Notes under the pieces: model-generated
The model's input: the letters and a program-made list of their open reading frames with translations, nothing else
What the model was told of the DNA's origin: nothing
The model's database searches: none
Part shown: positions 1,061-38,245 of the stretch, piece after piece
Numbering within the stretch: position 1 is the first letter of the stretch
How the letters are laid out: each line of letters starts with the position of its first letter
Source: a virus
Lineage: Duplodnaviria > Heunggongvirae > Uroviricota > Caudoviricetes
Length of the DNA: 64,000 nucleotides
Virus record (IMG/VR): IMGVR_UViG_3300029522_000074
Reading direction: 5' to 3' (one strand)
Position numbers and translations under genes: made by a program

Positions 1061-1097
1061 ATGTACCTCTCTTTCTTTACTTTTATATTCTCTCTTA

Positions 1098-1433: not shown

Positions 1434-1441
1434 ATCTTATT

Positions 1442-1735: not shown

Positions 1736-1756
1736 TTTAAAATCTCCTTTACTTCG

Positions 1757-2122: not shown

Positions 2123-2137
2123 TTATTCATCCTCCTT

Positions 2138-3403: not shown

Positions 3404-3445
3404 TTTTTACCTCCATATTTCCAAAAGAACGAATCTTTCTTGTTC

Positions 3446-4537: not shown

Positions 4538-4554
4538 CTCTTAAATCTCCTATC

Positions 4555-7477: not shown

Positions 7478-7496
7478 TTATTCTCCTTTCTTATCC

Positions 7497-8258
7497 TTAA
7501 TCTAACCACCTATTATCCAAATAATAGAACCCAAATACCATTCCTCCGATTAAAATAACCCAAAAGATCCAGAAAATAATAATTGGAAAATCAGATTCTA
7601 ACCTTTCTATCGTCTCGTCAATAGTCGAATTATTATAAAATGATGTGTTATCAGAAATGGTTTTATCTCTCAAATCTGTAAAAATTGTTCCTTTATATTC
7701 AGTACCAACGCCATAATATTTATACCTTATATGACTTGATTCCTTGATAGTGTCAATATAATCAGTACCAGGTAAATCAATTTTATTACTTGTGAAATTT
7801 ACTCCACAAAATGATACTTCTTTACACTTAATATCTTCACTTCCGACTCTATCCCAAGTCCAATATGTTTCTGTTGTATAATAAGTTTGTGATTTGCCAT
7901 TAACAGTTCTTGTATGAGCTACTTGTCTTGTATGCATTGTGTATTGCTCTTTGACTTTTTCTACATACATATATTCTCCATCAATTTCAGGATATGTAAC
8001 TGTATCTACTGTTTTCAAATCACCATATACAAACGCATTACCAACATTTGTATCCATTCCATATTGGAACATTTCTTGACTTTCTATCTTAACAGCTTTG
8101 TTATAAATTTCATTTTTATCCATTTGATATTCTGAAATCTTAGAAGAAATCAGAATACCAAACAGAATCATAACTGCAATGATAGAAATACTAGCCAAGA
8201 TTTCACGTTTTGTTATTTCAAAATTGCCAAAATCAAAACCTTTTCTACCATATCTCAT
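7497..8258 (-). CDS. membrane protein with N- and C-terminal TM segments (possible TPM-like partner of LemA)
   Basis: 253 aa; hydrophobic segments near both termini; immediately downstream of LemA, as LemA-TPM pairs are arranged in bacteria. Confidence 0.4.
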   Translation of the reverse strand: MRYGRKGFDFGNFEITKREILASISIIAVMILFGILISSKISEYQMDKNEIYNKAVKIESQEMFQYGMDTNVGNAFVYGDLKTVDTVTYPEIDGEYMYVEKVKEQYTMHTRQVAHTRTVNGKSQTYYTTETYWTWDRVGSEDIKCKEVSFCGVNFTSNKIDLPGTDYIDTIKESSHIRYKYYGVGTEYKGTIFTDLRDKTISDNTSFYNNSTIDETIERLESDFPIIIFWIFWVILIGGMVFGFYYLDNRWLD

Positions 8259-8261
8259 AGA

Positions 8262-8813
8262 CTAATCCTCTTTAAACAAATCCTGCGGAGCATCAACTGG
8301 TGCATTGTAATCCAAATACTCATATTCCTGTACTTCATATCCAAGCAATCCAAGAAACTGTCTTGTAGGGAACTTTCTCACATATCGTTTGTATTCCTTA
8401 ATCTGTTTATTGTAATTGCTGCGATATTCTGCAATCATATTCTCTGTCATAGATAACTCATTCATAAGAGTCTTATAGTTCTCATTGGACTTCAACTCAG
8501 GATATGCTTCTGCAACTGCTGTAATAGCTGTTGTTACATTCTCAATATCCCCTGTTGATCCACGACCATCTGCAACCGCTGTCAATGTATCAGCTTCATG
8601 TTTGTCATACTGTTTTACACAATCAGCAAGGTTATATACAAGATCAACTCTTCGCTTTTCCTGTACCTTAATATCTGATGACGCTGTATTTACCTGCTCT
8701 TCAAGTGCAATAGCCTTATTCTGTGAACTCTGTACACCAAATACAATCATCAAAATAACTGCTAATACTCCTACGCCAATAATTACTGGCACTTTCCAAT
8801 TTGTGTTCTTCAT
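8262..8813 (-). CDS. LemA family protein
   Basis: N-terminal TM, then AYPELKSNENYKTLMNELSMTENMIAEYRSNYNKQIKEYKRYVRKFPTRQF matching the LemA signature. Confidence 0.7.
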   Translation of the reverse strand: MKNTNWKVPVIIGVGVLAVILMIVFGVQSSQNKAIALEEQVNTASSDIKVQEKRRVDLVYNLADCVKQYDKHEADTLTAVADGRGSTGDIENVTTAITAVAEAYPELKSNENYKTLMNELSMTENMIAEYRSNYNKQIKEYKRYVRKFPTRQFLGLLGYEVQEYEYLDYNAPVDAPQDLFKED

Positions 8814-8947
8814 TTAAAATCTCCTTTATATGTAATATTTTTATTAGTTACACTGTAATATTCTCTTATTTGTTGGGATTCCCATAGCCGAATGGCTTAG
8901 ATATGATTAAAAATTTTCCAATGAAAGATTGGTTTACTGCGAAACCA

Positions 8948-9259
8948 CTACTTACTCTTCTTTACAGAAGTATTATTAACTGACTTCTGAATATTCTTCA
9001 TAAGCTGAATATTGTCGTTAATCATAAGTGCTAATGCCTGATCCTCTGTAAATCCAACATTTATATATGCATCAAACATATTTTTCTTAGTTCTCGCCTG
9101 AATTGCAGGATACTCAGTATTCTCAGAATAATCCTTTGCAATGATCATAAGTTCCTTCAGAACATCATATATAGGCTCTTTATACTTTGTAATGTATGTC
9201 TTTACTACCTCTCCTAAACTTTCTGGGTTCTCTGCTAATAATCTTAAAATTGTTTCCAT
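8948..9259 (-). CDS. hypothetical protein
   Basis: 103 aa ORF. Confidence 0.35.
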   Translation of the reverse strand: METILRLLAENPESLGEVVKTYITKYKEPIYDVLKELMIIAKDYSENTEYPAIQARTKKNMFDAYINVGFTEDQALALMINDNIQLMKNIQKSVNNTSVKKSK

Positions 9260-12605: not shown

Positions 12606-12803
12606 TTATTCTCCTAATTTCCTTCCACACCAAGGACAATACGAAATATATTCTTTCTGATGAACAAATCCATCGTCATATTCATCCCATTCAGAAGTTT
12701 CAATATCCAAATAATATTCATTTGTCAGTGGATCAACATATATCTGATTGTCAGGTGAATCATAATTACAACGGTTACACATACACTTACCTCGCTCTAT
12801 CAC
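12606..12803 (-). CDS. small zinc-ribbon protein
   Basis: CxxC...CPWCG motifs; 65 aa. Confidence 0.35.
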   Translation of the reverse strand: MIERGKCMCNRCNYDSPDNQIYVDPLTNEYYLDIETSEWDEYDDGFVHQKEYISYCPWCGRKLGE

Positions 12804-13671
12804 ATTCGTTAAAATCTAAAAGCATCTTATATTTATATTCTCCAAATCTTTCTTTCCAACGCTGCTTTGCTTTATCAGTATCCCAACTAAAAGGCATCAT
12901 ATGGTAATTGATGAGGAAACATGTATCTAAAACAACATCAGAATTAACATGATACATAGCTGTCATGTATTGATATGAACCGTAACAATGATGCTGATAA
13001 TAATGAGCTATCCCATCTTCATCAAATGTTTGTGTACTCAATTTGCCTAAATCGTGATACAAAGCACCTATTCTGAATCTTGCAGGATAAGCATATTTTG
13101 TGGAAAATAATCTTGATGCATATTTGCAGTGTTCAAATAAATTCATTGTATGATGCGGACTTTTCTGATCAAATCCTCTCATATCTGGAATATCATTTGG
13201 TTCGTAATCATTTAATAAATTATGAATAATAATCTCATCGAATCCTTCCTCGTAGAACGGAATCTGAAATTTTCTAATCTGCTTATCCAACACAAAGTCA
13301 GGTACAGGATGTTCTCTATGTAGATTATCTTTTTTGCACTGTTCAAATGGCTTTGGAATAATTACACATACTTTTCTGACATTTAAACCATTTACTTTCA
13401 TCATAATTGCTCTGCGAGATTTCATAGTCAGATTAGTCGCATCTGCGATTACATTCTTTTTATTCTCCAAATTCTTACGGATTCTATCATGAAAAATTTT
13501 GAATACTTCTTCATTATGTTCTTGATTTTCGTAATTACCAGTCAATTCCTCACGAATTGCATCGGATGATACGATTATTGTATTTGGATTCTCATTGGCA
13601 ATCTGAGTGGCAATGGTTGACTTGCCACTACCACTCAAACCACACATAATATACAATGTAGGTTTATTCAT
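12787..13671 (-). CDS. P-loop kinase fused to HD phosphohydrolase (polynucleotide kinase-phosphatase-like RNA repair enzyme)
   Basis: N-terminal Walker A GLSGSGKST typical of PNK-type kinases; C-terminal HD signature ALYHDLGK...HYYQHH...D; 8-nt overlap with the upstream RNA ligase gene. Confidence 0.6.
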   Translation of the reverse strand: MNKPTLYIMCGLSGSGKSTIATQIANENPNTIIVSSDAIREELTGNYENQEHNEEVFKIFHDRIRKNLENKKNVIADATNLTMKSRRAIMMKVNGLNVRKVCVIIPKPFEQCKKDNLHREHPVPDFVLDKQIRKFQIPFYEEGFDEIIIHNLLNDYEPNDIPDMRGFDQKSPHHTMNLFEHCKYASRLFSTKYAYPARFRIGALYHDLGKLSTQTFDEDGIAHYYQHHCYGSYQYMTAMYHVNSDVVLDTCFLINYHMMPFSWDTDKAKQRWKERFGEYKYKMLLDFNECDRAR

Positions 13672-14983
13672 TTAAAGTCTCCTCGAATAACTCTTCAGCT
13701 TCTTCCATATCAGGCACATCAGATGTATCTTTAGCAATCCCCTCAATTACCTTAAATTCAAACACCTTATCCTTATAAGCTGTGAATGTTGCTCTATTAT
13801 CAATACGAACAACTACACCTTCAGCAACATGTGTCTTACCGATTTCATCTGCTGGCATACCATCAAGATATTTATTTACTCTTTCTTTCAAATCTTCTGG
13901 TGTAGTAAAAATAAACTTCTCTAAATCAGGTACATGCTTAACGCCCAACTTGTCACACCATACTTCTACAGTTTCCCAAGGCACTTCAACAACTGTTCCG
14001 TCTGCTGTTGTCATTGTCATTCGATATACATACATCTCATTTTCGCCTTGTTCACAGCCATATGAGAATGTTGTGGTGTCACCAAATTTCTTAGTAAATT
14101 CTTTTTCCTTAACTCCCTTATTAGATACTGAACCCATAATTGGTGTTGTTTCATTTACATATCCGACAATTTCATAGAAAATTTCAGCACCTTCAGGAAG
14201 CTTGTCTTTTAATAAATCGTGGTACTTCTTTCTAAATCCATTATCAGAATAATATCCATCATTCTTTGTCATATCCTTTAACACAACTCTTCTGCTACCA
14301 GATACAACAGAAACTTCTCTTATAACCTTTGGTTTCATATGTAAAAACTTTCTCAGCTTACTATTCTTCTTTGTAACCTTAACAGTCTTCATAGTACGAG
14401 CCGATGTTCCGTGGAGCTTACGAGTAATATAAATTGTATCTCCTGGCTTAAATGCTGATATATTATATGCAAGCTGTGCAGTATCTTTATGCTCCTCAAA
14501 AAATGGATATGATACTGTTTCTTTCTGAAACTTATTTTTCTTCTTTAAATTATTTCCATTACCTCTTGAACGATTTTTTCCTCTTGGAATATATTTTTGA
14601 CAAATCTCATGACCACCAAGAACTGTAATCTGATCGCCATCTTTTAATTTTGAAATATCTGTATACTTAGAAAGTGTTTCAACAGGTAATACAAGTCCTT
14701 CTGACTTCTCACCTCTAAGTCTAATAGCGGTTACATTTCTCTTCTCAGCATCCATATAACCACCAATGTTGTTTCCATTCTTATCTTTCTTTCTGACAAG
14801 GTTATTATCTGCTGCATACTCAAGTGATAACTGACCGTCAGATGGGAAGAATACTACTTTCTGTCCTTCCTGATAATTCAAATCTACAATTACATTCTGT
14901 CCAAATACCTCTACACACTGTAACCTATCAGCGTTACTATGTTTTCTTAATCCTTTTAATGTTGTGATATAAGCACAATACAT
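13664..14983 (-). CDS. ATP-dependent RNA ligase-like protein (N-terminal OB-like domain plus nucleotidyltransferase)
   Basis: Candidate motif I lysine in ITRKLHGTSA; 439 aa; co-transcribed with the kinase/HD gene as in phage tRNA-repair modules. Confidence 0.5.
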   Translation of the reverse strand: MYCAYITTLKGLRKHSNADRLQCVEVFGQNVIVDLNYQEGQKVVFFPSDGQLSLEYAADNNLVRKKDKNGNNIGGYMDAEKRNVTAIRLRGEKSEGLVLPVETLSKYTDISKLKDGDQITVLGGHEICQKYIPRGKNRSRGNGNNLKKKNKFQKETVSYPFFEEHKDTAQLAYNISAFKPGDTIYITRKLHGTSARTMKTVKVTKKNSKLRKFLHMKPKVIREVSVVSGSRRVVLKDMTKNDGYYSDNGFRKKYHDLLKDKLPEGAEIFYEIVGYVNETTPIMGSVSNKGVKEKEFTKKFGDTTTFSYGCEQGENEMYVYRMTMTTADGTVVEVPWETVEVWCDKLGVKHVPDLEKFIFTTPEDLKERVNKYLDGMPADEIGKTHVAEGVVVRIDNRATFTAYKDKVFEFKVIEGIAKDTSDVPDMEEAEELFEETLNE

Positions 14984-19478: not shown

Positions 19479-19709
19479 TTATTTACACCTCTTGTTATAT
19501 TATTCTCTATTATTTCTGCCACCAATGTTTCTTTTTATTTTCTTTATAAACATTACAAACATTTGGATAATTACAACTTTTGGTTTCTTCATTGTAATAT
19601 TCGCAAAAATATCCATCTTCACAACCAATATCGCATTCCATTTCAGTATATATTCTCATAAAACCCTCCTAAACTCCTCAAGAAATCTATGTTTCTTGGT
19701 AAAAATATT

Positions 19710-19752
19710 ACTATATATAGTGTCTATATTTTGCACAGACACTATATATAGT
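19710..19752. promoter_or_regulatory. perfect 15-bp inverted repeat ACTATATATAGTGTC / GACACTATATATAGT with 13-nt spacer (paired ACTATATATAGT palindromes)
   Basis: Seen directly; on the minus strand the hairpin is followed by AATATTTTT, so it could also terminate the nadE-containing transcript. Confidence 0.5.
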
Positions 19753-19759
19753 ATTTCAT

Positions 19760-20497
19760 TTACGCCTGATACATAAAACTTGGCATTGGCTGTAATTTAA
19801 ACAGATTTTTCTCATGCATTGAATCAATCTTAGCTTTTACTTCCTCATTTGGCTCAATTCCATCTCTGATATATGCATCTAATTCAGCATAAGTAAATCC
19901 AAGGTTATCTTCATCAGTCTTTCCGCAAAGACCATCGGTAGGTGTCTTATCAACTAATTCTGACGGAAGCCCCAACTCACGACCAATAGCTTTAACCTCT
20001 GTTACTGTAAGCTGAGATAACGGACTGAAATCACCAGCAGCGTCACCATATTTCGTGGCGTAACCCACCCAATCTTCGGAAAGATTACACGTATTTGCAA
20101 CTCGACCATTTACTGTCTGTGATACTGCATAAAGCGTAGTCATACGAATACGAGCAGGAAGATTTGTTGTTGTCTGAATTGATAACTCTTCATCTAATGA
20201 TGTTTTAATTTCATATTCAGTAACATTCACAATTGTTCCGACTGGAATAATAGTACGTGGAATGTCTAAAAAACTGCAAAGTTTACGACTATATTCGATA
20301 TCTCTTTGTCTTCCCTGTGGCATCATCACACCAAAAACTCTATCCTTACCAAGAGCTTCTACACATAATGCAGCTACAACACTTGAATCCTTACCGCCAG
20401 AAATTCCCACTACTGCCATACAATCTTTACCATTCTGTTCAAACCAATTTCTGATCCACTCTACGATTTCATTTTTTACTTTCTTAGCATCAAACAT
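19760..20497 (-). CDS. nadE: NH3-dependent NAD+ synthetase
   Basis: PP-loop VVGISGGKDSSV, ARIRMTTLYAV, DFSPLSQLTVTEVKAIGRELGLP; 245 aa like Bacillus NadE. Confidence 0.85.
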   Translation of the reverse strand: MFDAKKVKNEIVEWIRNWFEQNGKDCMAVVGISGGKDSSVVAALCVEALGKDRVFGVMMPQGRQRDIEYSRKLCSFLDIPRTIIPVGTIVNVTEYEIKTSLDEELSIQTTTNLPARIRMTTLYAVSQTVNGRVANTCNLSEDWVGYATKYGDAAGDFSPLSQLTVTEVKAIGRELGLPSELVDKTPTDGLCGKTDEDNLGFTYAELDAYIRDGIEPNEEVKAKIDSMHEKNLFKLQPMPSFMYQA

Positions 20498-20513
20498 TTA
20501 TATATTCTCCTTC

Positions 20514-21140
20514 CTACATTCGATTCATCACATCATAGAACCGAATTAAATACTCATATACATTTCTAGGAACTAATTCTTTTACCTTTTCAAATTCACT
20601 CTTTTCACATAAATCTCTAACCAAACTTGAAGAAGTATGATTTTCTGGTATCTGAATTTCTGTGAAGTGATCTTTATATTCCATAAGATTTGCTTCTCTT
20701 AAAGCAGTCTCAAGATTCTGACCTTCTCTCACACATGCTACAAAATTATATTCCTCAACAAACGGTTTCCAATTATACCAAGTTGTAAGTGTTTCAATAT
20801 TATCCATTCCTAAACAAATATAGTATTCGTTGAAGATATAATCTTTTTCATTCATATCTCTTATCTGAGTAATAGTATTGTATGTCCTCTGTGGAAAGAA
20901 GCTGGTTGTTTCAACTTCGGATGCCCACATATTATTTTCATCACAATTTGGCATTGAATTAATTAGCGATACTCGACAATATCCAGGTATCAAAGTCTTT
21001 TTCTTCGCAACATATGTATCATGTGCAGGAATAAACAATATAGCATCGGCATTAACCGCTTTTTTAGCAGTCAATGCCATATCAACATGGGCGTTGGTAA
21101 TTGGATTAAAACTTCCTGGTATAAGTAAAATTTTATTCAT
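20514..21140 (-). CDS. nadD: nicotinate/nicotinamide mononucleotide adenylyltransferase (NadD/NMNAT-like)
   Basis: Nucleotidyltransferase motif PGSFNPITNAHV (HxGH-type); adjacent to pncB and nadE. Confidence 0.6.
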   Translation of the reverse strand: MNKILLIPGSFNPITNAHVDMALTAKKAVNADAILFIPAHDTYVAKKKTLIPGYCRVSLINSMPNCDENNMWASEVETTSFFPQRTYNTITQIRDMNEKDYIFNEYYICLGMDNIETLTTWYNWKPFVEEYNFVACVREGQNLETALREANLMEYKDHFTEIQIPENHTSSSLVRDLCEKSEFEKVKELVPRNVYEYLIRFYDVMNRM

Positions 21141-22434
21141 GATCCATTCTCCAATTAATACATCTCTTTAGATAATCAACATAATCAGGGTTTTTACACA
21201 TGCCTTTGCCTTCTACATCAGACACTTTTGCAACATCCATACCATTACATTTAGTGGTTTTCATTACAATATTTAAAGCAGGAACATCTGTGTCATTACT
21301 CAAATAAGTACCAATTCCAAATGCAACGTTTACTCTATCATGGAAGTGTCTAAATAACTTATCAGCTCTTTCAAAATCAAGACTGTCACTAAACAGAAGT
21401 GTCTTTGTCTTAGGATTGATACCAAGTGACTCATAATGATTAATCATTTTTTCACCCCATTCAATCGGATCGCCACTATCATGTCTTACACCACTGAATA
21501 ATGTTGCATATGTCAACTGAAAATCTTTCAAGAAACAATCAGTTGTAATTGTATCTGTGAGCGCAATACCATTTAACACACCATACTCTCTAACCCATGC
21601 GTCTAGGGCATACCAGTTTGAATATGCTGGATTGTGCTTGTGATTACCCTGACCAGAACACATAATCCATTCATGAGCCATAGTTCCAACAGGTGTAAGG
21701 TTATATTTCTTTGCAAGATATACATTAGAAGTGCCAACAAACTTAGATGGACTATGCAATGTATCATTCAAATGTGAAAACTTCTCAACAACTAATTCCT
21801 GTGCTTCAGCAGAAAGTCTTCTTCTAAGACCAAATTCAGAAAATGTACCAGCATACCAATGACCGCTTCTGAGATTTTCATACTTTTCATCTAATCTCTT
21901 TTTGAAACTATTAAGTAATTCCTCATAGTTATATGCCATTCTGAAATATACTTCGTTTACAATCGCAAGTGTAGGAATCTCATACATAGATGTATTAAGC
22001 CATGTACCAAATGTTTCGATAGAAAGACCGCAATCTGAATCTGTTGTAATTTCAAAATCCTCATATCTTGGCTGCCATAATCTCAGAAAATCAACATACG
22101 AACCTTTCATCCATTTGATATTATCAATATAAGTAAGTTCATCTTCTGTGAATCTCAAACCACAATATAATTTAATCTGTCTGCGAATCTCTTCTACCAT
22201 TTCTGGTGTAAAATGAACATCCTTATTACGACACTTAAAACTCCAAGTGGTTTTATAATCACTAAACTGATGATAAATAGCCTGTCCCATTGACAATTTG
22301 TAAGCATCTGTCTCCAATAAACTTGTAATAATCTGTTTCATATTATTTTCCTTCTTTCTTGATTTGATTAAATATTGTTCTAATATCATATTCTCTGTTT
22401 TCGTACTCATAAAACAGATTAATATACTTATCAA
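21133..22434 (-). CDS. pncB: nicotinate phosphoribosyltransferase
   Basis: LLETDAYKLSMGQAIYHQF matches E. coli PncB LLDTDAYKLHMQQAVFHH; likely true start is the internal Met at about 22341 (about 402 aa). Confidence 0.8.
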   Translation of the reverse strand: MISILICFMSTKTENMILEQYLIKSRKKENNMKQIITSLLETDAYKLSMGQAIYHQFSDYKTTWSFKCRNKDVHFTPEMVEEIRRQIKLYCGLRFTEDELTYIDNIKWMKGSYVDFLRLWQPRYEDFEITTDSDCGLSIETFGTWLNTSMYEIPTLAIVNEVYFRMAYNYEELLNSFKKRLDEKYENLRSGHWYAGTFSEFGLRRRLSAEAQELVVEKFSHLNDTLHSPSKFVGTSNVYLAKKYNLTPVGTMAHEWIMCSGQGNHKHNPAYSNWYALDAWVREYGVLNGIALTDTITTDCFLKDFQLTYATLFSGVRHDSGDPIEWGEKMINHYESLGINPKTKTLLFSDSLDFERADKLFRHFHDRVNVAFGIGTYLSNDTDVPALNIVMKTTKCNGMDVAKVSDVEGKGMCKNPDYVDYLKRCINWRMDHE

Positions 22435-22909
22435 TAAAAGTTATGTCATTTGGATGCATTGCAATTGGCTTACTTTTCTTAGATTTCCACCATTTTAATT
22501 CCTTCTCAAAATTAAACGATTTACCATAATATGCTCTACCTGCTCCAAGATAATCACAAAACATTTCTTTTTTATACTTCGTTGGCATTTCAATAGGATT
22601 CCCACCATTATCAAAATTGTCCTGCCAATATTCGTAATGGTGCTTGTTTCTTCCTTTATGGTGCATCCAAGCTGCTGACCAACCATTCTCTTTCTTACAA
22701 GCATCTATTGGACTTGAAGTACCTTGATAATACTTAACACTCTCCCAAAATTCTGTTGGAGAAAATTTAGATAAATCATGTACTAACCCTTGAAATGGAA
22801 TTCCCACTTTACAGCAATAGTAGAACACCCAATGTTTATGCGTACAGACTTTCTTAAAATGTCTAAAAGTATTAATGATATAATTCTTATACTTCATTAT
22901 TCTCTCCAA
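22343..22909 (-). CDS. hypothetical His-rich protein, possible HD-type phosphohydrolase
   Basis: H...HDLSK...MHHKGRNKHH pattern loosely resembles an HD metal-binding signature; 188 aa inside the NAD cluster. Confidence 0.3.
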   Translation of the reverse strand: MERIMKYKNYIINTFRHFKKVCTHKHWVFYYCCKVGIPFQGLVHDLSKFSPTEFWESVKYYQGTSSPIDACKKENGWSAAWMHHKGRNKHHYEYWQDNFDNGGNPIEMPTKYKKEMFCDYLGAGRAYYGKSFNFEKELKWWKSKKSKPIAMHPNDITFIDKYINLFYEYENREYDIRTIFNQIKKEGK

Positions 22910-23411
22910 TCACTTCGATCTGACACATCTTCATAGTTGCTAATGCAGCCTTATGAGTATTAGGTGTGACACCCGCACAACAACTTGCGTCTACTGTAAT
23001 ATCAATTTCAGGATAATTTGCTCTAATAATAAGTGCATTTGAAACCACACAGATGTCGGTACATAATCCGCAAATCTCAACACTTTCAAATTTAAAATCA
23101 TCCCAATGAGTCCATCCAAAAGTAATTTTGTCAATCAGAATGTCATTATCAATATCAAAATCTAACTTATCTGAAATCTGCCAACCAACAGTATTCTTTA
23201 CACAGTGAATAACAGGAAGATGTACACCTTCATATGTCTCTAAATAATTCTCAGGGTGTGTGTCTCTTGTAAAGATTATCTGTTTACCAGCATCCTTGTA
23301 CTCCTTAATTTTCTTTGCTACATTTGATACAATCGCCTGTGCTTCCTTTGTACCAAGTGTTCCATCAATAAAATCATTCTGCATATCTACAACAATTAAT
23401 GTTTCTCTCAT
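22887..23411 (-). CDS. pncA: nicotinamidase (isochorismatase-family cysteine hydrolase)
   Basis: VVDMQNDF catalytic Asp, metal site TRDTHPENY...H, catalytic Cys in ICGLCTDICV. Confidence 0.8.
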   Translation of the reverse strand: MRETLIVVDMQNDFIDGTLGTKEAQAIVSNVAKKIKEYKDAGKQIIFTRDTHPENYLETYEGVHLPVIHCVKNTVGWQISDKLDFDIDNDILIDKITFGWTHWDDFKFESVEICGLCTDICVVSNALIIRANYPEIDITVDASCCAGVTPNTHKAALATMKMCQIEVIGENNEV

Positions 23412-23506
23412 TTTGCTACCTCTTTTCTTTTTTTATATGTATTTATTCTCTGAAACTCAGAAGAAATTCCGCTTTCCTGCGAACTTCATATTATGTTATT
23501 CTCTAT

Positions 23507-24856
23507 TTAATATTCCCAATCATCATTCCTAACTTGGAATACATCGCCACACTCTTCAATATCTGGATAATTATATGTGGCAACATTCATAGCATATTTA
23601 TCTATTTCGTATGCTTTATATGTAATATTTGTAAATCCCATTTTCTCCAAACAATACCTGCCAGTAGCAATACCATCATACAAACTTAGAACTTCAATAG
23701 GATAATCTCGTGGAACATTCTTCAATCCATGATTTAAAATGTGAATAATTACTTCTGCCGTCCATCCATTGCCAATTTGTTTATATCTCTGAGTAGCACT
23801 GTTTTTTGGTGCTGCTGTATAATTATCTGGTAATGTCTGTAGTCTTTCACATTCTAATGGTGTTAATTTACGGATAAGATAATATCCATCTTTTAGTTTT
23901 ATTGGGTATAATCCATCTTTATAGCCAATAAGACCGTCTTTAACAAGATAGATCATTTTCCCATCAACAGATAAATTTCCATTCTCATACCATTCAATCT
24001 TTTTATATTTGCTTAAATCAATTACTTCTATCTCTTCACACATAACATTGTATGGAACACCTTTATGCAGATTTGCCAATAGACACTGAGACTTGTCTTT
24101 GTTAGATACTTGAATATATCCAAAATCAAAATGATTTCTTCCACCTGCTACAGTTCTGACCATATATTCCATTTCTTTTTCACTGAGATGTTTAAAACTG
24201 TCTTCTGTAATGGAAATTGGTGTCATATACAAACCAGTTTTTGCACCTTGACCACCACCGTTACTTGTAAGATTTACACTTTTCCCATCTGAACTATATA
24301 CTCTATGAGCCTGAGCAGTTGTGTCTATATCACCAATACGAATAGGTTCATCACTTTCTGCAATATTAACAGGTGTAAAAGCTACTTGAGTATGATGTTT
24401 TTTTAAATAATCTCGTGCATTTCCTGCTTGATGTTTTAAACAATAGGCTTTCTCTTTATCAACAATTCCATATTCAAGTACGTCTTTTAAAAAGATATGT
24501 CGATCTTCTGGTTGTGGAACATTTGAAATATTTGTACAATAAATTCTCTTCCTCTGTTGTGCTGATACCAAAGCACTATTAATATGTAATAGTGGATAAC
24601 CCAATTCTTCACTAATCTGACTCTTTATTTCTTCCGCAGCGGATTCATTGTTTTCGTACAAAAAGATATCTGGTTTCCACCTTTCTTTCGCCACCACATA
24701 ATTTAAGAATAATTCCCATCCTTCTCCCTCTGCTTTTGTCTCACGATTTTTTCTTTGTGCAATAGACCAATGAGTGCATGGCGAACCACCTATTAACAAA
24801 CGTAATGGTTGTCCATTAAGTTCACAATAAGTATTTTTTTCTTTATTCTCTGTCAA
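23507..24856 (-). CDS. DNA cytosine-C5 methyltransferase with circularly permuted motif order (IV-VI-VIII-TRD-IX-X then I-II-III)
   Basis: GGSPCTHWSIAQ (PC motif IV), FLYENNE (ENV-like VI), QQRKRIY (VIII), RKLTPLECERLQTLPDNY and GNGWTAEVI (IX and X), then C-terminal SLYDGIATGRYCL (motif I FxGxG); probable TTG start. Confidence 0.65.
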   Translation of the reverse strand: MTENKEKNTYCELNGQPLRLLIGGSPCTHWSIAQRKNRETKAEGEGWELFLNYVVAKERWKPDIFLYENNESAAEEIKSQISEELGYPLLHINSALVSAQQRKRIYCTNISNVPQPEDRHIFLKDVLEYGIVDKEKAYCLKHQAGNARDYLKKHHTQVAFTPVNIAESDEPIRIGDIDTTAQAHRVYSSDGKSVNLTSNGGGQGAKTGLYMTPISITEDSFKHLSEKEMEYMVRTVAGGRNHFDFGYIQVSNKDKSQCLLANLHKGVPYNVMCEEIEVIDLSKYKKIEWYENGNLSVDGKMIYLVKDGLIGYKDGLYPIKLKDGYYLIRKLTPLECERLQTLPDNYTAAPKNSATQRYKQIGNGWTAEVIIHILNHGLKNVPRDYPIEVLSLYDGIATGRYCLEKMGFTNITYKAYEIDKYAMNVATYNYPDIEECGDVFQVRNDDWEY

Positions 24857-25007
24857 AATCCTTTAATCTACAGAGATTGCGCAATCATTTATCCTAGAAT
24901 TTACTGTTAAATCCTTTCTTCTTAATTATTTTGTTATAAAATCCTATGGACTTTGCACGTCTGCAAAAACCATAAAAAAAAAATATTTCTTGTTACTTTT
25001 ATTTGGA

Positions 25008-25052
25008 AAATTTGGCTGAATCGCCAAGATAGAAATTTCTATATTTGATTAT
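25008..25052. repeat. copy A of ~45-nt intergenic motif AAAATTTGGCTGA...TAGAAATTTCTATATTTGATTATT
   Basis: Near-identical second copy at 25409-25459; both lie between consecutive minus-strand genes. Confidence 0.5.
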
Positions 25053-25382
25053 TTACTCATAAATTGTTACTGTTTTTGCCTCTTTTTGTCTTACATGAAA
25101 TCCTTGAATTGGAATAATTTCATATGGTGCAATATCCATAACTTGTTTAATATTAGGAAATTCTGTTCCTCTAACCTGAACCCATCTGCCATGTCCTCTC
25201 ATTGCTTCTATTGTTGTCATACATCCGCTTAACTTATGAAAATATTCCTCTTCACATAGAAAATATTTTCTATCATAACTGCAACTTCCAACATCCTCAT
25301 AACTTTTCATAGTCACTACAACCATAGGGATATTATTATCCAAAACAACATCTCCTATTTGTGGAATATACTTTTTACTCAT
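25053..25382 (-). CDS. hypothetical protein
   Basis: 109 aa ORF with RBS GAGAGGTGA. Confidence 0.45.
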   Translation of the reverse strand: MSKKYIPQIGDVVLDNNIPMVVVTMKSYEDVGSCSYDRKYFLCEEEYFHKLSGCMTTIEAMRGHGRWVQVRGTEFPNIKQVMDIAPYEIIPIQGFHVRQKEAKTVTIYE

Positions 25383-25408
25383 TCATTTCACCTCTCTTAT
25401 TTATTAAT

Positions 25409-25459
25409 AGAAAAATTTGGCTGATCAGCCGTGAATAGAATTACTTCTATATTAGATTA
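25409..25459. repeat. copy B of ~45-nt intergenic motif; contains palindrome TTGGCTGATCAGCCAA
   Basis: 27-77 nt upstream of the start codon of gene 25053..25382; candidate promoter or operator. Confidence 0.5.
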
Positions 25460-25463
25460 TTCT

Positions 25464-25919
25464 CTACTTTTCAAATGGCTTATCCATGATACAATTATTA
25501 ACCATATCTCTAAATGCAAAAGGGGAATCAATTACTCTATCTGAATATTTGAAATGTTTTAGAAACTCAAGTACCTCATGTGCATCTCTATGTGATAATG
25601 GGATAAACTTCACATATTCAGGATGTCCTTTAATACACACAACTGCCCAAGAATGATCATCAGAATAAAAACCAATATCCGTTCCAACATCTATCATCGA
25701 GTTCATCATTTTGTGACAATCATCAATTAATTTATAAGAATTTTTATATGTAACGGTTGCGTCAGATAATTGAATATTGGCATATCTATATCTTTCCTCT
25801 GCATCTTTGCATTTTTCTATTGCATCTTTATATGATTTCTTGGCTGCTTCCACTTGAAACAAATCATCCTCCAATAACCAATGTCTTAATTTATCTCGTA
25901 TTTTGTCCTTTAATTTCAC
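25464..25919 (-). CDS. hypothetical protein
   Basis: 151 aa ORF. Confidence 0.4.
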   Translation of the reverse strand: MKLKDKIRDKLRHWLLEDDLFQVEAAKKSYKDAIEKCKDAEERYRYANIQLSDATVTYKNSYKLIDDCHKMMNSMIDVGTDIGFYSDDHSWAVVCIKGHPEYVKFIPLSHRDAHEVLEFLKHFKYSDRVIDSPFAFRDMVNNCIMDKPFEK

Positions 25920-25923
25920 TTTT

Positions 25924-26367
25924 TCACCTCTTACATACTAAAATCTCAACATCCGTATCCGCAAAAATGCTTTTAATCTGTTCTGAGACATCGTTCCAAT
26001 TCAGCCTATCTAAACCACAACCAATTACAGGCATTGCAATCTTTTTGATATTATTATCCAAACAAATCTGTTTCATCTTTTCAAGTGCAAATTTCATTGT
26101 GATAATTGTTGGCTTGTGAAAATATCTCTCTTTTGTAATAAGATTAAATACTCTACCCTCTAATAGACAGTCACCACCAATTTTCTTATGAGTATACTGG
26201 TTAATATAATCTGGATATTTTGTCTGTAATTTTCGTTTCATATCAAATCTTTTATTGAATTCAACTACAATTCCTTTACCCATTCCAAAATCTGCACTGA
26301 TACAATGTGCTAAATTGTAATCTTCTGAAACTGTAAACAAGTCTTTATTCTCTTCACTGTATGTCAT
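25924..26367 (-). CDS. macro domain protein (ADP-ribose binding or processing)
   Basis: LAHCISADFGMGKGI and IAMPVIGCGLDRLNW match macro-domain Gly-rich loops; 147 aa. Confidence 0.7.
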   Translation of the reverse strand: MTYSEENKDLFTVSEDYNLAHCISADFGMGKGIVVEFNKRFDMKRKLQTKYPDYINQYTHKKIGGDCLLEGRVFNLITKERYFHKPTIITMKFALEKMKQICLDNNIKKIAMPVIGCGLDRLNWNDVSEQIKSIFADTDVEILVCKR

Positions 26368-26377
26368 TTATTTCACC

Positions 26378-26920
26378 TCACTTATTCGTAATCATATCCA
26401 AAAACAACAACTCATCTTTCTTCAATGTAATATCATAATCTTTCCATTTTTCCATCAGTTCTCTTATATCAAATCCATGCTCTGCAATTACCGCATAGCC
26501 ATGAGGAGTTTTATGGCAGTCATTGTGAATACCTAATAATCCCAAATCTGTTCTAAATTGACCAAGTAATTCTTTGTCATCCACATCAAAATCAAACAGC
26601 CACTTACTCTCATCACGATTTTGTACCTGTAGTGCAACGGATGCCAATGTGCGATTAAGCTGTGTCACACTTGGCTTATCTCTCAACAGACGGATAATAA
26701 ATTCTTCTCTGATTTTCTCTTCATTCCTAGAATTAACTGATCTATATAATCTTGTCTGTTCACCAGGAACTCCTTTAGCTGCAAAATTCTTAAAAGCTTC
26801 AATTACTTTATCTTCGTTCTCTTTATATTCAAGGATTGTTTCGGCTCGCCCCTTAAAACTTGGAATATCCTTATTGTCTTTATTTCGAGAACGAATTAAA
26901 TATACATATAAGTTTGACAT
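26378..26920 (-). CDS. hypothetical protein
   Basis: 180 aa; co-directional with the macro-domain gene. Confidence 0.4.
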   Translation of the reverse strand: MSNLYVYLIRSRNKDNKDIPSFKGRAETILEYKENEDKVIEAFKNFAAKGVPGEQTRLYRSVNSRNEEKIREEFIIRLLRDKPSVTQLNRTLASVALQVQNRDESKWLFDFDVDDKELLGQFRTDLGLLGIHNDCHKTPHGYAVIAEHGFDIRELMEKWKDYDITLKKDELLFLDMITNK

Positions 26921-28054: not shown

Positions 28055-30112
28055 TTAAAACTTAATCTTCATTACACGCTCTGTTGCACCCTTAACCTTA
28101 ACAACTAAATCTGCTCTCTTTGTCATAGAGAATCCAATTCCTGAAAGCTGATCATCAGTATCTTCTACATGGCACTTAGCACCTAAAGCCTCAAATACTC
28201 TCTTGTGCTTTTCAAGTTCACTCTTCAAGAACTCATTGTAATAGCCATTAGGACTTTCGTTGTTCACACAATCCTTCAGGAAGAAGAATAAATGTCTATG
28301 ACCAATTCCATCCTGCTCGTCAAAATAGTTTGGACTATAACTGATTACTGATACAGGAACGAACTGATTTGTATTTACACCCCAAATCTCACGGCTTGAA
28401 ATAGAGGAATTTCCTGCTAATTTTTCCTTAATTGAGAAGTTTCCATTCTCATCGAGTGTTACTTCTGCAACCTGAACCTTTTCATCAGTTCTCATTGACT
28501 TATCGTAATCAAACTTGTAAATTTCTCCATTAAATTCAATCTCAGCTCTAAATCCATGCCTTACGCTTCCTGAATACTGATGTACAAAGAACTTATAAAC
28601 ACCTGGTTTCATTCTTGACAGGTCTTCCCAAGTAATATTCTCCACTGCAATCTTTCCATCTGGATTAATAATATCAACATCTAACTGACCGCCCATTATC
28701 GAAATTCTTGGTTTTCTACAATTACTAAAGAAGATTTCATTCTTATCTGGTTCAATACAATGTGCGTCAAGGTCGTAGTTATCATGACCATCTTCGTTCC
28801 ACTGAATAGAAAATCTAAGAACGCCATCAACATTACCGCCAGCCGCTTTGACATTCTGTTTCATATCTGAGTCTGTAATGTTTCCTGAATAAGCCCAAGA
28901 TAATCCATTGTTCCACTTAAACATTGTCTTAGCATCTGGATTAACTGGTGCAATCATAGATACAAAGTTCTTCTCATGCTTATTCTCTACAAATGCTTCA
29001 ATCTCCTTTGCAGTTGGAAGCACCTTATCAATAAAATCCTGTGCTGAAATCTCTTCAACCTTAGAGAATTTTTTAGGACTTACAGCAATATCCTTTTCCA
29101 TCTGACCAAAAATATCATCTGCACCAACCATTCTTCTTGCAGCACTCTTATTTGAGAACAGTACATTATTTACAGTAATATCATTCAGATTAGCAAATCT
29201 TCTCTGTAATGAATCCATATATCCAAGTTCTGTAATAGTCTTCTTTGCATCCTCAAGCATTTTCTTTGTAAAAATAGCCTTTGGTCTTTTATAGTTGCTC
29301 GGTGCTGTAATCTGCTCATACTTCTTAACTGCTGTGTCAAGATCCATATCCTCGCTTACATTAATAAGAAGTGTTCCAATAGAATGATTTCTAATTCTAC
29401 CGATAGCCATGCCTGATGTTACCGACTTCTCCCAAGCATATAAGTCCTTTTCAGTATCAGAAGTCAGCTTATCATATTCCTTCTTATACTTCTTGAACTC
29501 TGTGAGTACACCTTTCCACTCTTCACCCTTGTAAAGTGTATTTGAATTGATAAGTTCAAGAATTGTATCAAGTGCTTCCATAGTAATCTCATCAAGAGAA
29601 CGCTTAAATACATTTCTTGTGTCCCTGAACTGTCCCTTAACTTCCTCGTTTGAACGACTACTTCTATTTACGAACTTGCTTGGAAGCTCTAAGAATAAAT
29701 GATCCCACTGATGAGACTTTCCATTAATTTCCTCAAAGTTAAAATCTGTACCAATCTTAGGGAACTTGGTTGTATAAATATCTGTAACTGTATGAGCTTT
29801 TACAAAAGTATCAAGTGCATCACATACTGACTGATATGTTGTATCACCAAGATTCAGTTCCCAGATTGTGTGGATCTGATTATCCTTGATAGTGACAGCA
29901 GAACCAATATTCTTAATAAACTGTCTACAACAACTGCAATCATGCTCTCTACGTTCCCTGAAAATCTCATTTGTACCGGCAGGGAAGCTATCAAGATATG
30001 TATTCCATAATTCGTCCTTATCTACATTTACCTCAAATAAATGTGTTGCCTCTTTCTGCATTTCATCGAAGTGCTTCTGTAAAGCCTTCTTAAACATCAT
30101 AAATCCATCCAT
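28055..30112 (-). CDS. large hypothetical protein (685 aa)
   Basis: Longest ORF in the window; no recognisable catalytic motif by eye; strong codon continuity. Confidence 0.5.
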   Translation of the reverse strand: MDGFMMFKKALQKHFDEMQKEATHLFEVNVDKDELWNTYLDSFPAGTNEIFRERREHDCSCCRQFIKNIGSAVTIKDNQIHTIWELNLGDTTYQSVCDALDTFVKAHTVTDIYTTKFPKIGTDFNFEEINGKSHQWDHLFLELPSKFVNRSSRSNEEVKGQFRDTRNVFKRSLDEITMEALDTILELINSNTLYKGEEWKGVLTEFKKYKKEYDKLTSDTEKDLYAWEKSVTSGMAIGRIRNHSIGTLLINVSEDMDLDTAVKKYEQITAPSNYKRPKAIFTKKMLEDAKKTITELGYMDSLQRRFANLNDITVNNVLFSNKSAARRMVGADDIFGQMEKDIAVSPKKFSKVEEISAQDFIDKVLPTAKEIEAFVENKHEKNFVSMIAPVNPDAKTMFKWNNGLSWAYSGNITDSDMKQNVKAAGGNVDGVLRFSIQWNEDGHDNYDLDAHCIEPDKNEIFFSNCRKPRISIMGGQLDVDIINPDGKIAVENITWEDLSRMKPGVYKFFVHQYSGSVRHGFRAEIEFNGEIYKFDYDKSMRTDEKVQVAEVTLDENGNFSIKEKLAGNSSISSREIWGVNTNQFVPVSVISYSPNYFDEQDGIGHRHLFFFLKDCVNNESPNGYYNEFLKSELEKHKRVFEALGAKCHVEDTDDQLSGIGFSMTKRADLVVKVKGATERVMKIKF

Positions 30113-31307: not shown

Positions 31308-31362
31308 TTAAGTACCTCCATTTGAATCTAAAACCATTATTTCTCCTTTCTTTAATATTTAA

Positions 31363-31435
31363 TGTGCCATAAGGGACTTGAACCCTCAACATCTTGATTA
31401 AAAGTCAAGTGCTCTACCTATTGAGCTAATGGCAC
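31363..31435 (-). tRNA. tRNA-Lys (anticodon UUU)
   Basis: Manual cloverleaf: acceptor GTGCCAT/ATGGCAC, D-arm GCTC-AATAGGTA-GAGC, anticodon arm CTTGA-CTTTTAA-TCAAG, T-arm GAGGG-TTCAAGT-CCCTT, discriminator A. Confidence 0.8.
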
Positions 31436-31439
31436 ACAG

Positions 31440-31512
31440 CTAGGATGGTGGGATTCGAACCCACGAATGTCAGAATCAAAATCTGATGTGTTGACCGCTT
31501 CACCACATCCCA
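31440..31512 (-). tRNA. tRNA-Gln (anticodon UUG)
   Basis: Manual cloverleaf: U1-A72 acceptor TGGGATG/CATCCTA (one G-U), anticodon arm TCAGA-TTTTGAT-TCTGA, T-arm GTGGG-TTCGAAT-CCCAC. Confidence 0.75.
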
Positions 31513-37237: not shown

Positions 37238-38245
37238 TTACATATTGTTTAACACATCTTTCATCCCCACTGCACCATTTGCATAATTATTAACTGTTGT
37301 ATTTACATTACTATGTCCTAACTGCTGCTGTACAAATGCAAGATTTCCATTTCTGTTCATTATACTAGCATAATAATGACGCATCATATGTGGTGTTATA
37401 CCATTTCCATAATTCTCAAATATCTGTTTGATATTTCTTTCTGTTGTACGAGTTCCATTTTTATTTACAAACACAGCTTCTGTATCAATAATGTTACTTA
37501 ATGTGCTTCTGTATTCTAACCACTCTCTTATAGCTTTTAAAGCAGATCCGCTAAGATATACCATTCTATTTTGCATTTCTCTGTACACACCTTTACCAAG
37601 AATAGTAATATAAGGCATTTCTTCATCCAAATGTAAATCAGACAAATCTAAACCAGCAAGTTCGGACTCTCTTATTCCAGTTCCTCTTAACACTCGAAAA
37701 ATAGCAATATTCCTATTTCTTACTGGAATATCCTTTTTCCACATTATCTTCTCTTCCATGTCGTTAAGCTGCTTTTCTGTTGGAAGTTTCTTAGTCAAGT
37801 TATTCCCAGATGGAATTCCTTTATAAGACACATCTTTAAAGAATCCATCTTTAATTTCAGTTCCCTTTACTCTACTCATATAATCCCAAAAGCTACTTAT
37901 CATATGCTTTCTGGTTTCCAATGTGGTTGGTGACATACCATTCTGTTCTTTATTTTTCAAATATAATGTAACATCCTCTGCCATAATATCAGTAAAATCC
38001 GATGGCTTAATATCTGAAATATTTGTTTTGTCAATAAGTTTTTCTTCAATAAACCAATTGAGTAAATCTACAATAACTCCAAGATAATTCAACGCACCTG
38101 CCTTACTCTCTATTCTAACAGTGAAATATTTTCTCATATATATAGGAAGATTTAACTCATCCAACTTGTTATTAAGCTTTTCAGCATTTTTGTTTTGTAC
38201 TTCTATTTTGTAACACATAATTATCAACCTCGCTTTCATAATCAT
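37238..38245 (-). CDS. tyrosine recombinase / integrase
   Basis: C-terminal catalytic motifs HMMRHYYAS and LGHSNVNTTVNNYA (R-H-R-Y family). Confidence 0.8.
   Translation of the reverse strand: MIMKARLIIMCYKIEVQNKNAEKLNNKLDELNLPIYMRKYFTVRIESKAGALNYLGVIVDLLNWFIEEKLIDKTNISDIKPSDFTDIMAEDVTLYLKNKEQNGMSPTTLETRKHMISSFWDYMSRVKGTEIKDGFFKDVSYKGIPSGNNLTKKLPTEKQLNDMEEKIMWKKDIPVRNRNIAIFRVLRGTGIRESELAGLDLSDLHLDEEMPYITILGKGVYREMQNRMVYLSGSALKAIREWLEYRSTLSNIIDTEAVFVNKNGTRTTERNIKQIFENYGNGITPHMMRHYYASIMNRNGNLAFVQQQLGHSNVNTTVNNYANGAVGMKDVLNNM

Follow-up and report, generated by a model that had tools for sequence, protein, structure and literature searches.

A putative five-gene operon for nicotinamide-to-NAD+ salvage, with a DUF5662 gene as regular partner, in a human gut phage lineage

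The window analyzed here, a 64,000-nucleotide stretch of the IMG/VR virus record IMGVR_UViG_3300029522_000074 (Caudoviricetes), holds five packed minus-strand genes at positions 19760–23411 that appear to form a single operon. In the order of transcription, they encode a nicotinamidase (PncA), a protein of the DUF5662 family, a nicotinate phosphoribosyltransferase (NAPRTase; PncB), an adenylyltransferase resembling NadD and the nicotinamide mononucleotide adenylyltransferases (NMNAT), and an NH3-dependent synthetase of nicotinamide adenine dinucleotide (NAD+; NadE). The best explanation of the set as a whole, to which we assign a probability of roughly 0.55, is an operon for deamidating nicotinamide salvage that would serve against NADase defence of the host. 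The chemistry of the pathway is well supported, whereas its biological purpose is not.

The successive intergenic distances in the operon are −11, +1, −8, and +16 nt, and a Shine-Dalgarno-like motif precedes every start codon (AAGAGG upstream of pncA). A terminator-like hairpin directly follows the nadE stop codon (Table 1), and a smaller one, which matches the consensus only weakly, is located in the 95 nt that separate a methyltransferase gene from pncA and delimits the unit upstream. Because of the tight packing and the flanking hairpins, we read 19760–23411 as one transcription unit; a scan for promoter consensus sites was uninformative (47 sites versus 48 expected). The gene limits in the first-pass annotation of the window, which had proposed a complete nicotinamide-to-NAD+ route here, are essentially correct. 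However, the PncB start that it gives, 22434, is a TTG codon that extends the reading frame into the DUF5662 gene. Profile alignments of PncB begin at the ATG at 22341, and the most likely start of the DUF5662 gene is 22897.

Profile searches and solved-structure searches agree with the proposed identities of the four enzymes, and their catalytic motifs are intact. PncA matches PF00857 (6.2e-27) and the Pyrococcus nicotinamidase in the Protein Data Bank (PDB 1ilw, 4.6e-16), and possesses the isochorismatase fold and the Asp-Lys-Cys triad. Its catalytic Asp9, Lys95, and Cys121 align with residues of 1ilw that we take to be numbered Asp10, Lys94, and Cys133. The metal ligands Asp50 and His52 (in TRDTHPEN) and His69 (in IHCVKNT) align with the TRDWHPEN and RHCVQNT segments of 1ilw, and thus the protein has the metal-binding D-x-H...H-C motif by which nicotinamidases are distinguished among the isochorismatase-like hydrolases. 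The PncA equivalog model of NCBIfam matched residues 2–56 only, below its cutoff, but the residues defining the subgroup predict a true nicotinamidase. PncB scores above the curated cutoffs of the NAPRTase equivalogs NF003704 (8e-146, 486.1 bits versus a cutoff of 379) and TIGR01514 (1.7e-121, 406 bits versus 269.55), as opposed to nicotinamide phosphoribosyltransferase (Nampt); its match to the PHROG family 'nicotinamide PRT' is only 4e-19. It also matches Pseudomonas PncB2 (PDB 1yir, 3.8e-96) and has a GTMAHEW motif at residue 219.

The NadD-like protein appears to be the most divergent of the four enzymes. It matches TIGR00482 at 6.6e-29 (101.3 bits, below the cutoff of 112.45) and PF01467 at 3.8e-15, and it can be aligned end to end with Bacillus NadD (PDB 2qtr, 6.4e-10) and over its N-terminal half with human NMNAT1 (2.6e-6). 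Its nucleotidyltransferase motif had been described as HxGH, but the actual segment is GSFNPITNAH (residue 9), a T-x-x-H form; a second motif, SSSLVRD, is located at residue 170. NadE is matched by PF02540 (4e-53), TIGR00552 (1e-55, 188.7 bits versus a cutoff of 63.65), and the 'NAD synthetase' family phrog_11189 (3e-68). It consists of a PP-loop SGGxDS domain (SGGKDS at residue 33) without a glutaminase domain, and its best PDB matches are all NH3-dependent enzymes, such as 2e18 (1.5e-33). Four consecutive steps of one pathway at such scores are not attributable to chance, and the encoded enzymes very probably have the activities that their sequences suggest.

In the proposed route, PncA would hydrolyze nicotinamide to nicotinate and NH3, and PncB would convert nicotinate and phosphoribosyl pyrophosphate (PRPP) to nicotinate mononucleotide (NaMN). 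The NadD-like enzyme would then adenylate NaMN to nicotinate adenine dinucleotide (NaAD), which NadE would amidate to NAD+, possibly reusing the NH3 released by PncA. Expressed from the phage, the route would escape host regulation and raise the flux from nicotinamide to NAD+ during infection. The likeliest selective reason would be NAD+ depletion by NADase defences of the host (TIR/Thoeris, SIR2, DSR, and RES), all of which release nicotinamide. The inputs would be nicotinamide, PRPP, and ATP only, and the route would work whatever becomes of the ADP-ribose half.

Table 1. Predicted features of the 64,000-nucleotide window, in order of position
Feature	Position	Strand	Remarks
Tad2-like (anti-Thoeris sponge) domain protein	1442–1735	minus	PF11195 1.2e-27, 96.7 bits versus cutoff 25
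Adenylosuccinate-synthetase homologue, 363 aa	3446–4537	minus	PF00709 1.2e-34; phrog_1211 ('2-aminooxy adenylosuccinate synthetase', PurZ-type) 1.3e-65
RNA ligase (PF09414) beside AAA_33/KTI12-type kinase	12787–14983	minus	RNA-repair-like pair
Terminator-like hairpin	19709–19753	minus	Directly after nadE stop; perfect 20-bp stem, T-rich tail
NadE, single-domain NH3-dependent NAD+ synthetase, 245 aa	19760–20497	minus	Predicted: NaAD + ATP + NH3 to NAD+
NadD/NMNAT-like adenylyltransferase, 208 aa	20514–21140	minus	Predicted: NaMN + ATP to NaAD; overlaps pncB end by 8 nt
PncB, nicotinate phosphoribosyltransferase, 402 aa	21133–22341	minus	Predicted: nicotinate + PRPP (+ATP) to NaMN
DUF5662 protein, 184 aa	22343–22897	minus	Between pncA and pncB; putative metal-dependent phosphohydrolase, distant HD superfamily
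PncA, nicotinamidase, 174 aa	22887–23411	minus	First operon gene; predicted: nicotinamide to nicotinate + NH3
Small terminator-like hairpin	23468–23483	minus	Between methyltransferase gene and pncA; weak consensus match only
Circularly permuted C5 cytosine methyltransferase	23507–24856	minus	Motif IV GGSPCTHWS at residue 23; motif I LSLYDGIATG at residue 390
Macro domain protein, 147 aa, orphan TARG1/DarG-type	25924–26367	minus	Variably present in relatives
685-aa protein	28055–30112	minus	phrog_1735 (2e-265), family function not known
tRNA-Lys(UUU) and tRNA-Gln(UUG), adjacent	31362–31512	minus	
Tyrosine recombinase, first of two paralogues	37238–38245	minus	PF00589 ~1e-28; 7 kb from the second, region of tiny ORFs
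Tyrosine recombinase, second of two paralogues	44380–45399	minus	PF00589 ~1e-28

A search with PncB patterns revealed close relatives on 166 IMG/VR contigs, most of them from human gut samples, and the best 80 loci were compared. This survey of the gene arrangement, which the first-pass annotation had called for, revealed all five genes in the same order in 63 of the 80 loci, and in three others the module is cut by the contig end. PncA-PncB-NadD-NadE without DUF5662 is present in five loci, PncA-PncB-NadE in two, and PncB-NadE only in seven. In one of the last group (L075, 9995–12644), PncB and NadE are followed by a NUDIX protein (7e-14), and PncA, DUF5662, and NadD are all absent within 10 kb; the PncB-NadE pattern recurs in L074 and L076–L080. 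Across the loci, PncB and NadD are typically 98% identical (97–100%), NadE is 48–99% identical (median, 70%), and PncA 40–99%; the core of the module is a mosaic. The presence or absence of genes and the mosaicism of alleles vary among near-identical phages, which is typical of conflict genes.

Several modules contain inserted genes, namely a DUF2726 gene (L002, 12532–12810), an AP2-domain gene (L007, 8117–8818), paired-cysteine-rich genes without a Pfam match (L019, 11841–12600; L061, 11998–13577), and a weakly radical-SAM-like gene between pncA and the DUF5662 gene (L001, 8810–9445). Where these insertions occur, the NadE and PncA alleles diverge sharply, and we suspect that some of the inserted genes encode selfish endonucleases by which allele exchange is driven.

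The gene order isochorismatase–DUF5662–NAPRTase–adenylyltransferase–NAD synthase also occurs in the distant elements L082 (224 kb), L245, and L246, and in L244 (302 kb) without NadD. The adenylyltransferase of L082 is of the NadM type, not the NadD type, suggesting that the function of the module was kept by non-orthologous replacement. Within 77–9049, L082 carries a NadR-like (CTP_transf_like + AAA_28) and PnuC-like pair and, approximately 3.5 kb downstream, the five-gene module. The pair looks like NAD+ reconstitution pathway 3 (NARP3, discussed below), which would give this phage two NAD+ routes. Some of the related modules adjoin RNA-repair genes: RtcB in L246, Thg1 in L245, and RlaP with an AAA_33 kinase in L082. 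In such elements, genes for NAD salvage are often found beside those for RNA repair.

The DUF5662 gene is the best lead from this analysis. Its product matches the Pfam DUF5662 family (8e-33), and in an alignment of 38 homologues, His13, His20, His40-Asp41, His79-His80, His86-His87, Glu89, Asp93, and Asp115 are invariant. The AlphaFold2 model is all-helical and confident (pLDDT 90). Its nearest folds are HD-GYP domains, with no YqeK structures among them, but the Foldseek matches were not significant (nothing below E = 0.8 against the PDB and BFVD). A phmmer search of the PDB and profile searches gave chance matches only, and no match was obtained with NCBIfam, PADLOC, or the Pfam HD families. 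The description of this protein as HD-like therefore holds moderately well: the invariant His and Asp residues and the helical model speak for it, whereas the missing Pfam HD match and the insignificant Foldseek result do not. By sequence, it belongs neither to the YqeK (COG1713) HD family nor to the Nudix ADP-ribose pyrophosphatases. The DUF5662 family comprises 3,714 clusters at 50% identity (E ≤ 1e-3), and a literature search for it returned zero papers.

We sampled nine contexts of DUF5662 in phages and mobile elements beyond the lineage of the window. In four of them (L082, L244, L245, and L246), the gene lies between isochorismatase-family and NAPRTase genes. DUF5662 has held this position in L082 despite the non-orthologous exchange of a NadD-type for a NadM-type adenylyltransferase. 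In one context (L081), it is located 2 kb from a NadM-type NMNAT. In L248, a phage-like contig of 44.6 kb, DUF5662 is fused to a NadD-like domain (GSLNPITTGH, SST..R; TIGR00482 1.4e-10) and is two genes from Nampt: the fusion protein of 377 aa is followed by an unknown protein of 184 aa and then by Nampt (NAMPT_N + NAPRTase, 467 aa) within 5001–8149. This fusion beside Nampt, which does not depend on the PncA/PncB route, gives the strongest indication that DUF5662 acts with NAD salvage. Judged by these gene contexts, DUF5662 appears to accompany the NAD salvage modules of phages regularly, and we consider the odds about even that it is involved in NAD metabolism.

Alternatively, DUF5662 may be a passenger without an NAD+ role, a general phosphohydrolase for nucleotide sanitising or RNA-end healing that was captured with the module; this is a possibility to which we give rather less than an even chance. 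In the remaining three of the nine contexts, the gene is found in kinase-phosphoesterase-RNase H clusters or beside a dual-specificity phosphatase. The string AAA_33 kinase–Metallophos–(small open reading frames, ORFs)–DUF5662–RNase H, with a sigma factor nearby, is seen in L241/L242 (2960–6219) and L247 (3440–6129), and a T4-type RNA ligase is also near the string in L241/L242, which are other large phages. It represents a second recurrent context that has no relation to NAD genes. Such kinase-phosphoesterase-RNase H or RNA-repair-like surroundings in other phages tell against a dedicated NAD function, as does the situation in bacteria, mostly Clostridia, where DUF5662 is a standalone, housekeeping-like gene. 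When 80 bacterial DUF5662 loci were probed by tblastn and phmmer with four diverse adenylyltransferases, PncA, PncB, and NadE, 78 had no NAD gene within 8 kb; the only matches near DUF5662 were two NadE and one marginal PncA-like protein. None of the other window genes recurred beyond a few of these loci. In one of the 80 (L176, a Clostridium genome, 5306–7285), an NAD-dependent DNA ligase gene precedes the standalone DUF5662 gene at a distance of approximately 700 bp, probably by coincidence.

Fusions of DUF5662 with a HAD_SAK_2 RNA-repair domain, a 2-thiouracil desulfurase, and a deoxyribosyltransferase-like domain are in line with such a passenger as well and leave a broader nucleotide-hydrolase role open. 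In addition, DUF5662 is missing beside some PncB relatives, and the modules in which it is sandwiched may share a single capture event. In contrast, its position between pncA and pncB has been kept while PncA falls to 47% identity and the type of adenylyltransferase is swapped, and the independent NadD-like fusion beside Nampt in L248 and the proximity to a NadM-type NMNAT in L081 also speak against a passenger.

A hydrolase partner of NAD salvage has precedents. YqeK, an HD-family di-iron hydrolase that is fused to or clustered with NadD in Gram-positives, hydrolyzes NaAD analogues and diadenosine tetraphosphate (Ap4A), and a proofreading role on NaAD analogues has been proposed for it. DUF5662 is likewise HD-like by fold and NadD-fused in L248, although it has no detectable sequence similarity to YqeK and the domain order of the L248 fusion is reversed. 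In NadM-Nudix fusions, an ADP-ribose pyrophosphatase domain is tied to the adenylyltransferase, providing a phosphohydrolase partner analogous to DUF5662, and the PncB-NadE-NUDIX variant in L075 is also consistent with a hydrolase partner. DUF5662 may thus fill the slot that is taken by the Nudix ADP-ribose pyrophosphatase or by YqeK beside adenylyltransferases for NaMN or nicotinamide mononucleotide (NMN), where it would hydrolyze an ADP-ribose-type or mis-made dinucleotide by-product. Any single substrate candidate is improbable at best. A more far-reaching proposal is that the operon constitutes a fourth kind of NAD+ reconstitution, deamidating, fed by nicotinamide only and hence indifferent to the changes that a defence makes in the ADP-ribose half, with DUF5662 as a new class of HD-superfamily enzyme dedicated to NAD-derived nucleotides and required for full counter-defence. 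In that case, DUF5662 would be a hydrolase of ADP-ribose or cyclic ADP-ribose or a dinucleotide proofreader, a stand-in for Nudix or YqeK. We regard both the proposal and this assignment as unlikely.

The operon can be compared with several known NAD+ pathways. Bacterial Preiss-Handler salvage uses the same four families in the same pathway order, with the same catalytic motifs that are intact here. The phage version differs in that it is one compact operon with DUF5662 inserted between pncA and pncB. Its PncB is of the approximately 400-aa PRK05321 type, the best solved relatives of which come from proteobacteria, Bacteroidota, and yeast, and its adenylyltransferase is divergent (T-x-x-H motif, score below the NadD cutoff).

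The closest published phage counterparts are the 'NAD-jumbo phages' described in Microbiome in 2024 (PMC11662467). Of 668 gut jumbo phages, 174 carry a complete salvage or Preiss-Handler route along with many NAD-consuming enzymes; Kuafu_71 provides an example of a pncB-nadD-nadE cluster, and counter-defence against NAD+ depletion was proposed (PMC11662467). The operon of the window shares the clustered pncB, nadD, and nadE genes, the gut origin, and the proposed purpose. However, it opens with pncA, and so its input would be nicotinamide rather than nicotinate, and it contains DUF5662; the published study mentions phage pncA only in passing and DUF5662 not at all (PMC11662467). Moreover, jumbo phages are defined by genomes of more than 200 kb, whereas the longest related contigs here are mostly 140–196 kb (two exceed 200 kb) and the window is 64 kb. 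The suggestion that a full four-step route in a phage is a distinct solution was overstated, as phage pncB-nadD-nadE clusters and the idea of counter-defence were already known (PMC11662467). The present analysis adds a nicotinamidase in first position, which feeds the product of the NADases back into the pathway, together with a compact operon in a sub-jumbo gut lineage, a catalogue of its variants, and the recurrent DUF5662 partner.

Experimental proof exists for three phage pathways of NAD+ reconstitution, each from phages that infect Proteobacteria or Bacillus, and they use other enzymes, as the first-pass annotation had stated for two of them. NARP2 (Nampt and Nmnat; Vibrio phage KVP40) likewise starts from nicotinamide and PRPP and is independent of ADP-ribose, and experiments have shown that it overcomes NADase defences, among them RES-type cleavage, to which NARP1 succumbs. 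By the same logic, the present route should resist RES-type cleavage because it needs nothing from the ADP-ribose half. NARP2 takes two amidated steps via NMN, whereas the operon here would take four via nicotinate, NaMN, and NaAD. An Nmnat-like enzyme is present in the window, but the phosphoribosyltransferase is a NAPRTase equivalog and there is no Nampt. The L248 contig has a NARP2-like pair in which the adenylyltransferase is the one fused to DUF5662.

NARP1 (Adps and Namat), with its form NARP1-AP that includes the macro phosphatase Adpp, is also a phage NAD+ reconstitution operon whose core can be extended by an accessory hydrolase. It reuses ADP-ribose through ADP-ribose pyrophosphate (ADPR-PP), whereas the macro protein near the present operon is TARG1-like and not linked to it. 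A Pfam scan of 113 window ORFs, nearly all of those of at least 60 aa, found neither a PRPS-like protein nor a second phosphoribosyltransferase family, as would be needed for NARP1. NARP3 (PnuC and NadR) restores NAD+ by importing nicotinamide riboside (PMC13464706); there is no NMN_transporter or AAA_28 match in the window, and both are present in L082. In the same 113 ORFs, the scan detected no further NAD-related gene, be it for Nampt, a PRPS-like protein, PnuC, NadR, Nudix, a sirtuin, or an ADP-ribosyltransferase. PncA, PncB, and NadE are not mentioned in the NARP1/2 preprint or the NARP3 paper (PMC13464706), and a 2022 survey of viral NAD systems covers only NadV, NadM, and NadR.

For the biological purpose, we consider a counter-defence role evenly balanced on the genomic evidence. 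In its favour, the window also carries the Tad2-like anti-Thoeris gene, the operon is located beside a hypervariable accessory region, and the module in L082 has for a neighbour a NadR-PnuC pair like that of NARP3, a pathway with experimental proof. Several points weigh against it, in addition to the contexts of DUF5662 outside NAD modules. The route is long and expensive, with four steps that consume PRPP and approximately three ATP, and even the two-step NARP2 has been described as metabolically wasteful, somewhat toxic, and rarer than NARP1. The NadD-like protein scores below the NCBIfam cutoff, and its preference for NaMN or NMN is not readable from the sequence; with either one, the pathway could operate as long as NaMN is accepted. 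Relatives that have PncB-NadE only, or that lack NadD or DUF5662, fit flux boosting equally well. Bacillota normally possess PncA, PncB, NadD, and NadE, and the phage would therefore duplicate rather than complement the pathway of its host. Literature searches that combined the four gene names with phage terms turned up no experiments on the route in any phage.

Some of these points suit a different explanation, in which the operon is auxiliary metabolism that fills the NAD+ pool for the large phage's own needs, such as replication, NAD-consuming ligases, ADP-ribosyltransferases, and RNA repair. NAD synthesis genes are common in large phages, as the 174 gut jumbo phages with a complete route illustrate (PMC11662467), the standard pathway of the host is duplicated, the PncB-NadE-only variants look like boosts of rate-limiting steps, and some modules are near RNA-repair genes (RtcB, Thg1, and AAA_33 kinase). 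We nevertheless judge auxiliary metabolism to be rather unlikely as the reason. The nicotinamidase at the start of the operon designates nicotinamide, the product of NAD+ cleavage, as the input, and NAD-consuming enzymes were not found within the 64-kb window. The co-occurrence with Tad2 and, in L082, with the NARP3-like pair, as well as the mosaic distribution in near-identical phages, also argues for deamidating salvage against NADase defence. Counter-defence and a general NAD+ supply are compatible.

The operon comes from a gut phage of roughly 150–190 kb. The window has a G+C content of approximately 31%, nearly all of its genes are on the minus strand, and its small ORFs are densely packed on that one strand, with many PHROG-specific families represented. 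Phage-type families include phrog_1735, YopX, the Tad2-like and the PurZ-like proteins, and there are two tRNAs. The 685-aa phrog_1735 protein has relatives in 481 GenBank phage records, at the top of which are Bacillus phages of approximately 155–165 kb (60–63% identity); it is also 59% identical to a Clostridioides element protein and offers a taxonomic or host hint. The host is probably a low-GC, Bacillota-type bacterium, as suggested by the low G+C content, the DUF5662 relatives in Clostridia, and the macro protein relatives in Bacillus, Lactobacillus, and Fusobacterium phages.

A near-identity DNA search of GenBank phages gave only one match, of 534 bp and 76% identity, to an unannotated faecal phage, indicating that the lineage has no cultured or annotated relative there. 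In a tblastn search with PncB, 14 of 50,697 GenBank phage records were matched. Two Acinetobacter 'phage' records among them are plainly bacterial DNA, and the unannotated match in Moraxella Mcat17, near the end of the record, may be host flank. In Agrobacterium phage Atu_ph07, PncB stands alone, and an ADP-ribose pyrophosphatase is encoded nearby. No full cluster of a cultured phage was seen in the neighbourhoods examined, which belong to some of the 14 records.

Such bacterial records raise the question of whether the window itself is a bacterial or plasmid fragment misfiled as viral, and it is true that no structural gene was identified within it and that the related module in L246 adjoins a Rep3 replication gene and TnpB. 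The PHROG-specific families, the two tRNAs, the one-strand array of small ORFs, the Bacillus-phage-like 685-aa neighbour, and the 90–216 kb IMG/VR relatives make this extremely unlikely, and the phage origin is borne out.

The first-pass annotation had treated the whole of 19760–26920 as one NAD+ counter-defence island, including the macro domain gene, the methyltransferase gene, and three unknown genes. This extension did not hold, as only DUF5662 travels with the pathway. The macro, methyltransferase, 109-aa, and 151-aa genes are present in a minority of the 80 loci, and their distances vary; most loci lack the 109-aa and 151-aa genes, and the methyltransferase is replaced by unrelated ones in relatives. 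The interval from the conserved upstream genes to pncA varies from approximately 2.5 to 8 kb. Their variable presence beside a conserved core suggests that these genes are independent cargo of a hypervariable spot. An island acting on NAD+ and ADP-ribose as a whole would agree with the physical proximity and the shared strand of the genes, and with the extension of NARP1 in some phages by the macro domain protein Adpp, a phosphatase of ADP-ribose-1''-phosphate (ADPR-1''P). We consider it very unlikely, given the distribution described above, the hairpin and 95-nt gap that separate the methyltransferase gene from pncA, the TARG1/DarG-like character of the macro protein, and a nicotinamide-only route that makes no use of ADP-ribose.

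The macro domain itself is real, but the view of it as an ADP-ribose handler for the pathway has found no backing, and the route does not need one. The protein matches human TARG1/OARD1 (PDB 4j5r, 3.4e-26) and PADLOC DarG (1.3e-15), and the macrodomain part of DarG was matched in two libraries. The catalytic Lys and Asp, presumably Lys84 and Asp125 in TARG1, are conserved in position (within LITKER and GCGLDRL, respectively), as in ALC1-like macrodomains. The match covers only positions 27–142 of the 329-position DarG model, and the protein consists of the macrodomain only, without the second domain of DarG. It has no DarT-binding C-terminal domain and no DarT neighbour, and its neighbours have no PADLOC match, in contrast to a DarTG system. 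Homologues occur in Bacillus phage G, Lactobacillus phages LP65 and LpeD, and Fusobacterium phage Fnu1. We also considered Adpp as an identity and rejected it: the phage homologues of the protein belong to phages of Gram-positives and Fusobacterium, TARG1 is the closest of its solved-structure matches, and yeast Poa1p, reported as the closest characterised homologue of Adpp, is not among these. By analogy with the orphan NADAR antitoxins that phages use against DarTG1, our guess is that the macro protein may act against DarT2 or in other de-ADP-ribosylation.

Two further gene assignments were upheld. In the methyltransferase, motif IV precedes motifs I–II (residues 390–420), in keeping with a circularly permuted C5 enzyme, and the 1442–1735 product is confirmed at the profile level as Tad2-like. 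Elsewhere in the window, the PurZ-like protein raises the possibility that this phage synthesizes 2-aminoadenine (Z) DNA; the ORFs that neighbour its gene gave no Pfam match to MazG or HD. Single ORFs within 198–36875 and 38558–63934 match PemK/MazF toxin (9.8e-31), LemA (2.7e-29), RadC (9.6e-22), HNH endonuclease, sigma-70 region 2, and HicA toxin (6e-6).

NAD+ depletion is among the commonest outcomes of bacterial anti-phage defence, and the operon described here is common in a widespread phage lineage of the human gut. If its proposed role is true, the classical four-step deamidating route would join the known counter-defences and extend them to gut Bacillota phages, and it would offer an explanation of how these phages could survive when a defence alters the ADP-ribose moiety. 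For DUF5662, the recurrent link to phage NAD salvage, including the NadD-like fusion beside Nampt, provides a first functional lead.

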